Source: Candidatus Bathyarchaeota archaeon
GTDB taxonomy: Archaea; Thermoproteota; CALKCG01; B24; DRYS01
Assembly: GCA_018396535.1 (NCBI GenBank)
Contig: JAGTQC010000001.1
Location: forward strand, 1 to 64,000
DNA length: 64,000 nt
Direction of reading: 5' to 3'
Shown here piece after piece: positions 37,621 to 63,658 of this stretch. The stretch's first letter is position 1, and each line of letters starts with the position of its first letter. A program made the translations under genes and the position numbers. The notes below the pieces were generated by a model. It did no database searches, had not been told where the DNA came from, and was given only the letters and a program-made list of their open reading frames with translations.

Positions 37621-38614
37621 ATGTTTAGAGAACCTATAGTAGCCGTTACACACGGAGAGTCTCTCTGAGAGACCCGAATACTGTGACGGCGTATGCTCAG
37701 CAGCTATACTGAAGAGAAGTATGAGAGTGGATACTATACGTATATCTACACCTACAAGTCTATGTAGAATACTGAAATCGCTAGCTTCTATAAACCCGTC
37801 GACCATAGTTATATGCGATATAGCTGTCGATACAGGCTACATGAACGAGCTTATAGATCTGATCAGAAACATATCCTCTAGATGCTTCATATACTATATA
37901 GATCATCATCCACCACCCGCAGGATTCCCCCCACCCGGCATAGATCAATTCAAGTACATATACAGGTCGGGTGTATCAGCCTCCCAGCTTGTATACGAAG
38001 CTATAGGTAGATCCGATGATAGGATATCCAGAATCCTTATGGCCTACGGAGCTATAGGCGATATGTGCGATGAATCCCAGCTAGTTAGGGATGTATTAAG
38101 CCTATGGGATAGACGGCTCATATACCTAGAAGCAGGCTTCATAACCGAGGGGCTGATATCTAGGAGAGATGAGAAATTCATATACGAGCTAATAGATAGG
38201 CTAGCTCAAGGTAATCCACCTAGTAGTATACCGGAGCTAGTATCCAGCTGTCTTAAAACCCTGAGCGACGAGTACAAGGTGTATAAGTATGTAGAGGAAA
38301 ACGTTAACGTAAGAGGTAGGATAGCTATCGTAACTAAGATACCTATAAGAGGCTTCGGAGGTAAAGCTGCAAACTATGCTCTAGCATATACCAGAGCTGA
38401 TGTAGCTATAGCTATAACTATAAGCGGTGGTACAGCTCATATGAGTTTAAGAAGTAGGAATCCAAGAATAGATCTAAACGATCTAACACGTAGATTATCC
38501 ACAGCTCTAGGAGGATACGGTGGGGGGCATCCTCAATCAGCTGCAGCAAGGATACCAGCTTCAAGAATAGAGGAGTTCCTCATGTTTATGGAGATAGCTC
38601 TACAAGGATTATGA
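37621..38614 (+). CDS. DHH/DHHA1 phosphoesterase (NrnA/RecJ-like), spliced: exon 1 37621-37657, exon 2 37680-38614, 323 aa
   Basis: GGAGGT SD before ATG 37621; splicing restores motif I THGDCDG; CD, IDHH, IGD, GGGH motifs downstream. Confidence 0.85.
37658..37679 (+). other. 22-nt BHB-type mRNA intron in DHH gene
   Basis: GCCGUUACA-C-ACGG-AG^A-GUCUC(UCUGA)GAGAC-CCGA-AU^A-C-UGUGACGGC; contains an in-frame TGA and shifts frame. Confidence 0.82.
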
Positions 38615-38690
38615 GAACCTCGATATCTAACCCTACAAGCTAAACCTTAATATGTAAGTACATCTTGAGCATCCTATGGCGGTGGGATAG

Positions 38691-39788
38691 ATGAAGGTAA
38701 CTATATCCGTTATAAAAGCAGATGTAGGATCCCTAGCAGGACACCACATAGTATACCAGGAGCAGATAGATCTCGCAAAGAAGATGCTACAGAAAGCTAA
38801 GGATGAAGGCCTACTCATAGACTACTACGTATTCAACGCTGGAGATGACCTAGAACTCGTTATGACTCATACTAGAGGAGAATCCAGCCCTGAGATACAC
38901 GGCTTAGCTTGGAATGTATTCAAGGAGGTGACAGAGAAGGTTTCACGTCCTAGAAAGCTGTATGCAGCTGGTCAAGATCTACTAAGCGAAGCATTCTCTG
39001 GTAATGTTAAAGGTATGGGTCCAGGCGTAGCCGAGATGGAGATAGAGGAGAGGAGGAGTGAACCTATAATAGTCTTTGCCGCAGATAAGACGGAGCCCGG
39101 AGCCTGGAATCTACCTCTATACAGGATGTTCGCAGATCCATGGAATACAGCTGGTCTAGTTATAGATCCATCCATGCATCAAGGCTTCGTATTCAGGGTT
39201 ATGGATGTGGTCGAAGGCAAGACCATAGATTTGAAGACTCCTGAAGAAGCATACGATCTACTAGCTCTAATAGGTACTACAGGAAGATATATCGTAGAGA
39301 GGGTTTACAGAGCTGACGGGCTTCTAGCAGCAGTAGCTAGCGTAACTAGGCTAAGCCTCATAGCAGGTAGGTATGTAGGTAAGGATGATCCTGTATGTAT
39401 AGTTAGATGCCAGCATGGCCTACCAGCAGTCGGTGAAGCCTTAGCCCCATTCTTCACACCACACTTCGTAGCAGGGTGGATGAGGGGGTCACACTACGGT
39501 CCATTAATGCCTGTAGGCTTGAAGGATAGTAGATGCTCATTCTTCGATGGGCCGCCTAGAGTCGTAGCGTTAGGATTCCAGCTAGCTGAAGGTAAGCTAA
39601 TAGGACCAGCAGATCTATTCGATGATGTAGCATTCGACCATTCAAGAAGGATAGCACTCCAGATGGCAGAATTAATAAGAAGAAACGGGCCTATAGCACC
39701 AGCTATACTAGGACCAGAGGAACTAGAGTACACGGGTATAAAGGAGACTCTACAGAGACTAGCATCTAGATTCAAAGAGGCTAAGTAG
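38691..39788 (+). CDS. fbp: bifunctional fructose-1,6-bisphosphate aldolase/phosphatase
   Basis: IKADVG..GH, GDD, YVGKDDP, GWMRGSH, EYT. Confidence 0.96.
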   Translation: MKVTISVIKADVGSLAGHHIVYQEQIDLAKKMLQKAKDEGLLIDYYVFNAGDDLELVMTHTRGESSPEIHGLAWNVFKEVTEKVSRPRKLYAAGQDLLSEAFSGNVKGMGPGVAEMEIEERRSEPIIVFAADKTEPGAWNLPLYRMFADPWNTAGLVIDPSMHQGFVFRVMDVVEGKTIDLKTPEEAYDLLALIGTTGRYIVERVYRADGLLAAVASVTRLSLIAGRYVGKDDPVCIVRCQHGLPAVGEALAPFFTPHFVAGWMRGSHYGPLMPVGLKDSRCSFFDGPPRVVALGFQLAEGKLIGPADLFDDVAFDHSRRIALQMAELIRRNGPIAPAILGPEELEYTGIKETLQRLASRFKEAK

Positions 39789-39946
39789 CTATATACATTT
39801 TTGTGTTAATATATCGAATCCATCTTCTTTTTACCTCTTCAATACAACTATATAGGATCCCATGATACAACTACAGTTTTCTATACCCGATACACTAAAA
39901 ACATTTCCAACAGACTTAAATCCTCTCACCACCTTAGATAAAAATC

Positions 39947-40279
39947 GCCGGTCGACGGGCGGTACCCCGTTACATCTCTATAGGTTTCTATAGGGATGTA
40001 ACGGTGGATAATACAACGGTAAACAGCCTCCTCCCCCCGGAGGAAGGGGGTCTACCGGGGGGGACCCCCTCCTGGGAGACTGTTTACCGTTGTATTATCC
40101 ACCGTTACATCCCTATAGAAACCTATAGAGATGTAAATCTGAATACCCCTAGGTCCCCCGCCTAGGAGTATTCAGAGGAAGGGGATGCTTGCAATTAACC
40201 GTAGGCTCCGTAACCGGAGCCGAAGGTTGATTGTAAGCCATGGAGGAAACTCCTACCGCCCGATAAACGGCATCCCTTC
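39947..40279 (+). ncRNA. unclassified ~330-nt highly structured non-coding element (candidate ncRNA)
   Basis: 5'/3' closing helix, 57-bp rod, two long hairpins, GAAA tetraloop hairpin; GC-rich; TATA-like TTAAAT at 39916-39921. Confidence 0.6.
39970..40136. repeat. perfect 57-bp inverted repeat (39970-40026 / 40080-40136) with 53-nt spacer
   Basis: Base-by-base reverse complement verified. Confidence 0.97.
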
Positions 40280-40329
40280 TATTCTACGATCATCATGAAT
40301 TCGAGTTTATCTACTCTATCGTAACTGGT

Positions 40330-61739: not shown

Positions 61740-61745
61740 GAGGAT

Positions 61746-62300
61746 TTGGTCGTTATAACGGTTAGTGGTCTCCATGGATCCGGTAGATCTACACAGGCTA
61801 AGCTACTAGCTAGAGAGTTTAACTTGAGATATGTATCAGCTGGTCAGCTGTTCAGGGATATAGCTAGAGAGAAGGGTGTAGCTATACATATGCTTAGCTC
61901 ACAGTTGTTATCCGATCCTACGATAGACTATATGATAGATGAGAGAACTAAACGTGAAGCTGAGAAGGGTGATGTAGTACTAGAGGGTGATCTATCCGGT
62001 GTTATGGCTGGTAACCTAGCCGACGTTAAGATATTCTTGAAGGCTTCGGATGAAGCTAGGTTTAGACGTATAGCTAAACGTGAAGGATGTAGTTTAGAAG
62101 AGGCGGCGAAGATCACCTTAGAGAGGGAGGAGAGGGATAGAGTAAGGTTTAAGATATTTTACGGTGTAGATCCATTCGATCTATCCCTATACCATATAGT
62201 TCTAGATACTAGCTTACTAACCGTCGAATCAACTTTCAGAATACTAAAAGTATGTGTAGAAGAGTATATCAAGTGTAAAGGTTTAAGGGGAAATACTTAA
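61746..62300 (+). CDS. cmk: cytidylate kinase
   Basis: SGLHGSGRST P-loop, SAGQLFR, R..RIAKRE. Confidence 0.92.
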   Translation: MVVITVSGLHGSGRSTQAKLLAREFNLRYVSAGQLFRDIAREKGVAIHMLSSQLLSDPTIDYMIDERTKREAEKGDVVLEGDLSGVMAGNLADVKIFLKASDEARFRRIAKREGCSLEEAAKITLEREERDRVRFKIFYGVDPFDLSLYHIVLDTSLLTVESTFRILKVCVEEYIKCKGLRGNT

Positions 62301-62340
62301 GAGTAGGCTGAGTGAATCCCTAGCCTTTTAGAAGGTGATT

Positions 62341-62628
62341 CCGATGATAGAGGTGGGTAGAGTATGCGTTAAGACGAGGGGTAGGGAGGCTGGTCTTAAA
62401 TGCGTGATAGTAGATATAATAGACGATAACTTCGTATTGATAACAGGTCCTAAGAATATAACTGGTGTTAGGAGGCGTAGAGTTAACGTTAAACACTTAG
62501 AACCTACACAGTATAAGCTAGAGATAGAGAAGGGGGCAAGCGATGAAGCTGTAGCTGAAGCTTGGAGTAGATCTGGTCTACCTGAAGAGTTCTATAAACC
62601 AGTTAAACCTTTATTGAAGCCTATCTAG
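62341..62628 (+). CDS. rpl14e: ribosomal protein eL14 (start within 62335-62344)
   Basis: EVGRVCVKTRGREAG, TGP, RRRVN..HLEPT. Confidence 0.93.
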   Translation, partial: PMIEVGRVCVKTRGREAGLKCVIVDIIDDNFVLITGPKNITGVRRRRVNVKHLEPTQYKLEIEKGASDEAVAEAWSRSGLPEEFYKPVKPLLKPI

Positions 62629-62640
62629 GGGGTGTAGGTC

Positions 62641-63658
62641 TTAACTTCTACACCTCCATGGAGCGTTAAGAGGGAGTTCATATATAGGGAGACACCGTAT
62701 ACCGATGGAAGGTATGGGTGTAGACCTGATAGAAGACCTATCGATAAACTACTAGAGTATGGAGTGATACTACTCGATAAACCATCAGGCCCTACCAGTC
62801 ATGATGTAACAGCGCTTATCAGGAGGATAGTTGAAGCTAAGAAAGCTGGTCATGGCGGAACCCTAGAAGTCTAGATCTATAAGGGATCTAGACTGGGGAT
62901 ATCCAGCTGTTACAGGTGTTCTACCTATAACTCTGAATAATGCTGTTAAGATAGTTAGAGTTCTACTTAGCGGTGGTAAGGAGTATGTAGGCGTCATGAG
63001 GCTTCATGGAGATGTATCTAGGGATAAGATTAAATCATGCTTCGATATGTTCCAGGGAGAGATATATCAGAAGCCTCCTGTTAGATCATCTGTTAAGAGG
63101 AGGCTTAGAACTAGGCGTATATACTATCTGGAGCTTCTAGAGATCGATGGACGTGATGTACTGTTTCGTGTAGGCTGCGAGGCTGGGACGTATATAAGAA
63201 AGCTATGCTATGATATAGGCGAGATACTCGGCTGCGGTGCTCATATGAAGGAGCTTAGACGTACACGTGTTTCTACATTCACAGAGGATGAATGTGTACG
63301 TGTAGATGATATATTCGATGCTTACATGAGCTGGAAGGAGTCTGGGGATGAATCTATGCTTAGAAGGATTGTTAGACCTATGGAGGATGCTCTAACTATA
63401 CTACCTCAAGTTATCGTTAAGGATACGGCTGTCGAAGCTATATGTAATGGGGCAGATCTAGCGGTACCTGGTATAGTAGCATTCACAGGGGATATAAGAG
63501 AGGGGAGTCTTGTAGCTATACTAACGGTTAAAGGTGAGGGTGTAGCTTTAGGTTTAGCTCAGCTATCTGCGGAGAAGCTTCTAGAGAAGGAGAAGGGGAT
63601 AGCTGTTAAAACTGAGAGGGTTCTCATGCAGCCTGGTACCTATCCTAGGGTATGGTAA
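62641..63658 (+). CDS. cbf5: H/ACA pseudouridine synthase Cbf5, spliced: exon 1 ~62641-62866, exon 2 62901-63658
   Basis: [24 protein letters not shown], spliced [30 protein letters not shown] domain; start codon uncertain. Confidence 0.93.
62867..62900 (+). other. 34-nt BHB mRNA intron in cbf5
   Basis: CCCU-AG^A-AGUCUAGAUC(UAUAAGG)GAUCUAGACU-GGGG-AU^A-UCC; in-frame TAG at 62872-62874. Confidence 0.92.

Follow-up and report, generated by a model that had tools for sequence, protein, structure and literature searches.

Can the protein-coding genes of an archaeon depend on the machinery that splices tRNAs, and if they do, is that dependence a means of control? The question is raised by a 64,000-nucleotide (nt) stretch of a Candidatus Bathyarchaeota archaeon, positions 1 to 64,000 of the forward strand of contig JAGTQC010000001.1 (assembly GCA_018396535.1), which we call the window. 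Within it, a gene for a DHH/DHHA1 phosphoesterase (hereafter DHH) and the pseudouridine synthase gene cbf5 are each interrupted by a short insert. It is very likely, in our view, that both inserts are archaeal bulge-helix-bulge (BHB) introns in pre-mRNAs, that they are two of a lineage-wide set numbering at least eight, and that the set is evolutionarily sticky and most likely spliced constitutively, with no role as a regulatory switch. What we observe is the motif, the exact restoration of the reading frame, conservation with covariation, and the presence of genes for the enzymes; from sequence we infer that the introns are cleaved and ligated in vivo.

Two interrupted genes in the window

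The DHH gene starts at an ATG at 37621 on the plus strand. Exon 1 (37621..37657) consists of 12 codons plus G, the first base of an Asp codon, and reads MFREPIVAVTHG; the 22-nt insert (37658..37679; phase 1, G^AC) falls within the first Asp codon of DHH motif I; and exon 2 (37680..38614) carries the Pfam DHH match, from profile position 12 of 125, and DHHA1 at residues 228-304. Taking out the insert joins G|AC to give MFREPIVAVTHG-D-CDGVCSAAIL in a continuous frame of 323 amino acids (aa); the unspliced reading ends at a TGA three codons inside the insert. The H-G-D-C-D-G of motif I (DxD) is present solely in the spliced product, whose N-terminus aligns with the MIILTHGD start of the intronless orthologue in G011, a genome of the same order. 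Exon 2 alone scores 21.5 bits against Pfam DHH, under the cut-off of 28.1, and 44.6 bits against DHHA1; among solved structures the protein matches only RecJ/GAN, weakly and within the DHHA1 domain. The RNA folds into an exon-exon helix, a central helix CGG/CCG, a 5′ bulge AGA cut at AG^A, an intron hairpin and a 3′ bulge AUA cut at AU^A (z -3.0).

The cbf5 gene, also on the plus strand, is interrupted in the same manner. Exon 1 (62659..62866; Pfam DKCLD 12-57/58) runs from the DKCLD domain to GHGGTL plus G, followed by a 34-nt intron (62867..62900; phase 1, at G^AT of the catalytic Asp) with a near-canonical BHB, and by exon 2 (62901..63658), which takes up Pfam TruB_N from profile position 17 and continues through TruB_C_2 and PUA. 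Once 62867-62900 is taken out, with the in-frame TAG that it holds, G|AT is joined and the product reads GHGGTL-D-PAVTG. Its fold (z -4.9) has the same elements as that of DHH, exon-exon helix and intron hairpin included, the central helix being CCCU/GGGG and the bulges a 5′ AGA of 3 nt and a 3′ AUA, again cut at AG^A and AU^A; alignment to the intronless orthologue in the more distant genome G023 gives a pair of high-scoring segments (HSPs) with exactly 34 extra nt. The position is identical to that of the published crenarchaeal cbf5 intron, defined as falling after the first base of the catalytic Asp codon (PMC2738675): this is the known intron. The DHH intron is new.

An earlier note on this DNA had attributed a single design to both inserts, namely insertion at G^AY of an Asp codon, AG^A and AU^A bulges, an in-frame stop and lengths of 22 and 34 nt, and the coordinates and folds given here confirm it. 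The shared A(A)GUCU start that it added holds for these two introns but not as a general mark, as only the AG, the third bulge base followed by the G that opens the hairpin, is common to the genome's other introns.

The 5′ end of cbf5 has a peculiarity of its own: no in-frame ATG, GTG or TTG precedes the conserved DKCLD part in the genome under study or in its two congeners (window 62629-62680). The ATG at 62658 is off the frame by one base, and the congener G002 does not have it; a conserved hairpin (GGUGUAG/CUACACC) stands between the L14e stop and the first conserved cbf5 codons, W-S-[V/I/L]-K-R-E-F. We discarded the ideas of a second intron and of a 1-nt error, since no BHB was found and the feature is kept in all three genomes; a non-canonical start codon or a further processing step is possible.

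A genome-wide set of mRNA introns and its conservation

The earlier note suspected a wider, unannotated set of mRNA introns of the type removed by the splicing endonuclease EndA and the ligase RtcB, and such a set exists: a homology-anchored census of the genome, a metagenome-assembled genome (MAG) of 1.41 Mb in 14 contigs, gave at least eight, six of them beyond the window. As references we fetched G011 (1.85 Mb) and 800 kb of G023, a complete 1.52-Mb genome from another family of the phylum. We looked for reference proteins with broken matches in the genome under study, asked whether the peptide from the predicted splice carries the reference alignment on across the junction, and compared junction peptides kept between two genomes where both hold the insert; a structure-first scan with coding potential only retrieved the same loci. 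A required outer exon-exon helix was abandoned, as it missed real introns (cbf5, aIF5A and AmrS). The count of eight is a lower bound: what the scan can detect is inserts of this geometry no longer than about 100 nt, in genes with reference homologues or a strong coding signal.

Besides those of DHH (C1 37658-37679) and cbf5 (C1 62867-62900), the set comprises introns in aIF5A (C7 48986-49020, 35 nt), where the hypusine Lys is split; aEF-2 (C9 125139-125170, 32 nt; Asn of RNIGIIAH split); S-adenosylmethionine (SAM) synthetase, or MAT (C8 172213-172247, 35 nt; Lys of ERKGLGHPD split); the radical-SAM protein AmrS (C11 41481-41501, 21 nt; Lys of PIEKKP split); aIF5B (C12 5714-5737, 24 nt; Ile split, relaxed motif); and a small Lrp/AsnC-like gene (C10 110368-110390, 23 nt; between Glu and Ala). 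All eight bring an early in-frame stop, and the predicted cuts restore both frame and conserved motif in seven of the eight genes. Junctions match intronless G011 orthologues for DHH and aIF5A, G023 orthologues for cbf5 and EF-2, and an intronless G011 paralogue for AmrS; the MAT junction peptide fits positions 4-44 of Pfam AdoMet_Synthase without a gap, and for aIF5B the G011 open reading frame (ORF) runs across the junction.

Other breaks in the census were set aside. Most matches of the conserved-junction search were antisense, low-complexity or at gene boundaries (for example gap-pgk at C1 286193, and C12 14337 adjoining the Shine-Dalgarno (SD)-like AGAGGT), and HSP-pair breaks on the minus strand at 52.1 and 52.6 kb of the window are antisense reflections of boundaries between genes on the plus strand. 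Two further, weak BHB-like candidates with AGA bulges, C5 1408-1448 (+) and C10 58608-58643 (+), would lengthen downstream ORFs by very short first exons.

Do the inserts instead stay in the RNA, as assembly errors, pseudogene lesions, sites of ribosomal frameshifting or bypass, or leaders ahead of downstream protein starts? A MAG in 14 contigs invites the suspicion, and it does hold some true frameshift-like breaks: compared with G011 orthologues, breaks of 1-2 nt with no BHB occur at window 21733-21738 (+), at C7 190428-190553 (+) and, several in succession, at C13 57.4-59.2 kb (-), and for these, assembly error, decay or a programmed frameshift is a likelier cause than an intron. Against retention of the inserts, the same sites are interrupted in independently assembled genomes, with differing length and sequence and the BHB geometry kept; essential genes are hit (aEF-2, aIF5A at its hypusine Lys, aIF5B and cbf5); a downstream start would lose the conserved motifs in exon 1; and lengths are mostly not multiples of three, with no matched take-off and landing codons in the genome under study.

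DHH illustrates the comparative evidence. Orthologues were present in 29 of the 40 relatives searched, and six genomes of two families (f1 and f2) carry an intron at the same site: it measures 22 nt in the congeners G001 and G002 as well, and 27-30 nt in G003, G006 and G009 of the sister family f2. Orthologues from families f3 and f4 and from more distant genomes are uninterrupted (THGDCDGVCSAA). All six inserts have a common fold architecture with changed stem sequence, the hairpin GUCUCU/AGAGAC becoming GUCUCG/CGAGAC and, in f2, GUGAAGG/CUUUCAC. The same site and common fold, with stems that differ, make sequencing error, a pseudogene or a downstream start very unlikely for this gene.

The f2 insert in G006 and G009 (L004:1470-1500 and L005) has a further trait: it is 30 nt long, in frame, holds stops and is bounded by CGGAG...CGGAG, with GGA codons at both ends. 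This may be what an insertion left behind, or an arrangement like that of a translational bypass.

We then fixed splice sites by protein homology alone and scored pairing at the positions that the BHB demands against slid controls. In the six DHH introns 45 of 54 such cells were paired (controls 17-23/54); the corresponding counts were 138/152 for 20 cbf5 introns (controls 64-85 of about 150), 125/126 for 14 aEF-2 introns (44-77/126) and 32/36 for four aIF5A introns (10-18/36). In the four genes tested, then, 83-99% of cells were paired, against about 28-61% in slid controls, with up to five pair types at a hairpin position, and 41 of the 44 introns have AAA or AGA as their 5′ bulge. This homology-fixed covariation is the strongest evidence for selection on structure exactly at the frame-restoring boundaries. 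Taken with it, retention of the inserts in the RNA is extremely improbable, even granting the matching GGA codons of the f2 DHH insert.

Most of the eight introns are common to relatives, each in its own pattern. The cbf5 intron occupies its site in 20 of 23 relatives at lengths of 11-76 nt and was not found in the other three, G016, G022 and G023. That of aEF-2 occurs in all four families of the order (29-37 nt) and in G022 outside it; it was not found in the other genomes examined outside the order. The aIF5A intron is present in f1 and f4 and was not found in f2 or f3; the aIF5B intron is present in f1, f2 and f4, and in G023 at the same AU^G...UA^A site (27 nt), and was not found in f3. 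Judged from open-frame lengths only, the MAT intron occurs in f1, most of f3 and probably f2, and was not found in f4, and the AmrS intron occurs in f1, f2 and genus g6 of f3, and probably not in genus g3 of f3.

Two of these cases have further features. The G023 aIF5B insert (C1 about 550,830-550,870 of that genome, minus strand; L142:10830-10870) holds an in-frame TAA and reads GGGGCCAU^G...GGUA^AACCCAGC; the same genome is without the cbf5, EF-2, aIF5A and DHH introns. In G011 the Lrp/AsnC-like gene is present in two copies (R2 334612-334899 and R2 705064-705085), one intronless and one with a 22-nt intron at the same site.

Several points weigh against our reading of the inserts as spliced introns. 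The DHH motif is relaxed, with a central helix of 3 bp plus an A-A mismatch and a 3′ splice site in a 5/2-nt internal loop. In aIF5B the frame-restoring 3′ junction lies 2 nt off the position set by the rule, and its motif is looser still than that of DHH. Translational bypass of the in-frame 30-nt DHH insert, with its GGA...GGA flanks, is a formal possibility in f2. Finally, genome-wide statistics on BHB motif and reading frame failed: candidates at the predicted cut were no commoner than phase-shifted decoys, whether or not we added hexamer coding potential, a best-of-six-frames filter or one for start/SD. In this test the signal is drowned by boundaries between genes on the same strand, and the case for the introns, the exclusion of chance included, therefore rests on the comparative data, namely conservation and covariation in relatives.

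Splicing enzymes, regulation and intron origin

The genome encodes two EndA paralogues, of 187 and 189 aa. The catalytic Tyr, His and Lys are all present in one of them, which corresponds to the C-terminal half of the fused form of the enzyme; the other is without the His and matches the N-terminal half. By sequence this is a two-subunit, (αβ)2 layout, and the architecture check proposed in the earlier note thus turned up the kind of EndA that is predicted to accept relaxed motifs, a tolerance attributed to (αβ)2 enzymes in PMC5829648. An RtcB is also encoded (C7:165752-167059; PF01139, 596 bits).

We propose that the transcript folds locally, the end of exon 1 pairing with the 3′ end of the intron in a central helix of 3-4 bp flanked by two purine-rich 3-nt bulges and the intron hairpin. 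The (αβ)2 endonuclease would then cut after the second base of each bulge, and RtcB would ligate the exons. Only the spliced mRNA would encode the enzyme; unspliced mRNA would stop two to three codons into the intron and give a product of about 15 aa for DHH and 72 aa for cbf5. Experimental demonstration of cleavage and ligation is cited in PMC2738675 and PMC12397907 for cbf5 only, in other Crenarchaeota (Watanabe 2002; Yoshinari 2006).

The earlier note went further and proposed that introns placed in active-site Asp codons jointly gate enzymes of RNA metabolism. In such a regulon, EndA/RtcB capacity would co-regulate nucleic-acid and translation proteins, and introns in catalytic codons would keep unspliced mRNA inactive. 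Five of the eight targets do act in translation or RNA modification (cbf5, aIF5A, aIF5B, aEF-2 and possibly DHH), the early stop in every intron means that expression strictly needs splicing, all eight introns are 5′-proximal, and removal of a BHB intron from the 5′ untranslated region (UTR) of Haloferax HVO_1309 seems to bear on its expression (PMC7714728). The targets as a whole are nevertheless a mixed class, which also takes in SAM synthetase, AmrS and the Lrp/AsnC-like protein. Nor does the active-site rule survive. Only two of the eight introns split an Asp codon; three split Lys, one Asn and one Ile, and one lies at a Glu-Ala junction. The bulges read A-R^A and A-N^R, and purine-rich bulges entail a purine-rich spliced junction, G|AY (Asp) or A|AU (Asn) in phase 1 and AA|A (Lys) in phase 2; the junction codons thus follow from the bulge sequence. 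The phyletic patterns differ as well, each intron being patchy in its own way (DHH in f1 and f2, aIF5A in f1 and f4, aIF5B in f1, f2 and f4), a pattern that separate gains and losses explain better than a conserved regulon would. We consider such a regulon very unlikely. The alternative that the earlier note itself offered, that introns persist where their loss is hard, accounts for the data as well or better.

That alternative leads to the question of origin. Mobility by reverse splicing or transposition has been proposed for tRNA introns in Thermoproteales. If the mRNA introns are, or were, mobile in the same way, they would insert where an exon supplies half a BHB and persist where imprecise deletion is lethal. 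Patchy gain and loss across families and the uniformly purine-rich junctions are in keeping with this, as are the sites of the DHH and cbf5 introns in or beside conserved motifs (97th and 91st percentile of local conservation). Placement in the most conserved part of the protein is true of these two only; the other junctions are ordinary, at the 30th-76th percentile, and we dropped it as a general rule. Apart from the bulges and the G that opens the hairpin, however, the introns have no sequence similarity to one another, and no insertion intermediates or target duplications were seen, save the CGGAG of the f2 DHH intron. Mobility is in our judgement a tentative explanation, somewhat on the improbable side.

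A multi-intron tRNA, which would also suit mobility, lies in the window itself, and here too the earlier note was right. The minus-strand tRNA-Gln(CUG) gene (32196..32322) contains introns of 32 nt (32261-32292) and 19 nt (32234-32252); ARAGORN calls tRNA-Gln(ctg) after in-silico removal of both and does not call the unspliced gene, which Rfam and default ARAGORN miss. An Rfam scan of the window gave no family at threshold except one tRNA. The window also holds a structured non-coding stretch of about 310 nt (39947-40271) with a long inverted repeat of about 57 bp.

One regularity of the eight introns is their position. All fall within the first 12-69 codons of proteins of 76-737 aa, at a mean relative position of 0.18, with seven of the eight in the first 26% (p about 0.001 by hand calculation, n=8). 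This 5′ bias may mean that unspliced mRNA yields short, harmless products, that splicing gains time ahead of coupled translation, or that intron loss is 3′-biased. A broader proposition is that core genes (aEF-2, aIF5A, aIF5B, Cbf5, SAM synthetase and others) of Bathyarchaeia, and here and there of Thermoproteota close to them, can be expressed only with the help of the tRNA-splicing machinery, and that the 5′ bias reflects a real functional coupling. We think this unlikely as a whole. If the coupling were real, EndA/RtcB activity might set the pace of translation-factor synthesis or control its quality, or it might guard against truncated products, and there would be a prokaryotic precedent for routine mRNA splicing. 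We favour constitutive splicing of an evolutionarily sticky set.

Relation to known splicing systems

The scale of the set, its essential targets and its 5′ bias make it of clear interest. Since 2002 cbf5 had been the only archaeal coding sequence known to need tRNA-type splicing, and at least eight genes, essential translation factors included, now appear to share that need. In one major class of uncultured archaea, if not in more, introns of this type recur; the eight persist with compensatory changes through an order, and two occur beyond that order too. In standard annotation the genes that carry them come out as frameshifted or truncated, or are missed, which distorts completeness estimates and metabolic inferences for Bathyarchaeia MAGs. 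The introns also provide concrete substrates for work on EndA specificity, on mRNA splicing under coupled transcription and translation, and on intron gain and loss in prokaryotes.

In eukaryotes, HAC1 and XBP1 mRNAs are processed by IRE1 plus tRNA ligase or RTCB; IRE1 is a dedicated, signal-activated nuclease, and regulation has been demonstrated. The archaeal introns are likewise short, frame-changing mRNA introns for which removal by a non-spliceosomal endonuclease plus RtcB is predicted, and HAC1/XBP1 is the model of a splicing-gated switch. In contrast, it is the housekeeping tRNA endonuclease that is predicted to act here, and regulation is a speculation. The introns of archaeal tRNAs and rRNAs, which have BHB or bulge-helix-loop (BHL) motifs and include those of the multi-intron tRNAs of Thermoproteales, share the motif, the predicted enzymes and similar lengths (about 11-76 nt). 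They differ in their host: in an mRNA, the motif includes coding sequence on its exon side, the 3′ end of the intron is tailored to pair with codons, and the precision of splicing is dictated by the reading frame.

The 5′ UTR BHB intron of Haloferax volcanii HVO_1309 is likewise an mRNA substrate of the splicing endonuclease (Schwarz 2020, PMC7714728), although it lies in an untranslated leader, interrupts no codon, and is a single case in a euryarchaeon with another type of EndA. That 2020 study names cbf5 as the sole such case besides its own; splicing was confirmed for no gene except cbf5 according to PMC2738675; a 2025 paper cites the cbf5 work only (PMC12397907); and our search of the literature, incomplete in coverage, found no report of multiple coding-region BHB introns.

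A close known counterpart is the published cbf5 intron, described from Desulfurococcales and Sulfolobales (Yokobori 2009, PMC2738675). The cbf5 intron of the window agrees with it exactly in site and shares its BHB motif, a hetero-oligomeric EndA is likewise encoded alongside, and the introns of DHH and the six other genes are predicted to work alike. The present set extends this kind of intron to Bathyarchaeia and their neighbours, and adds seven further genes to cbf5.

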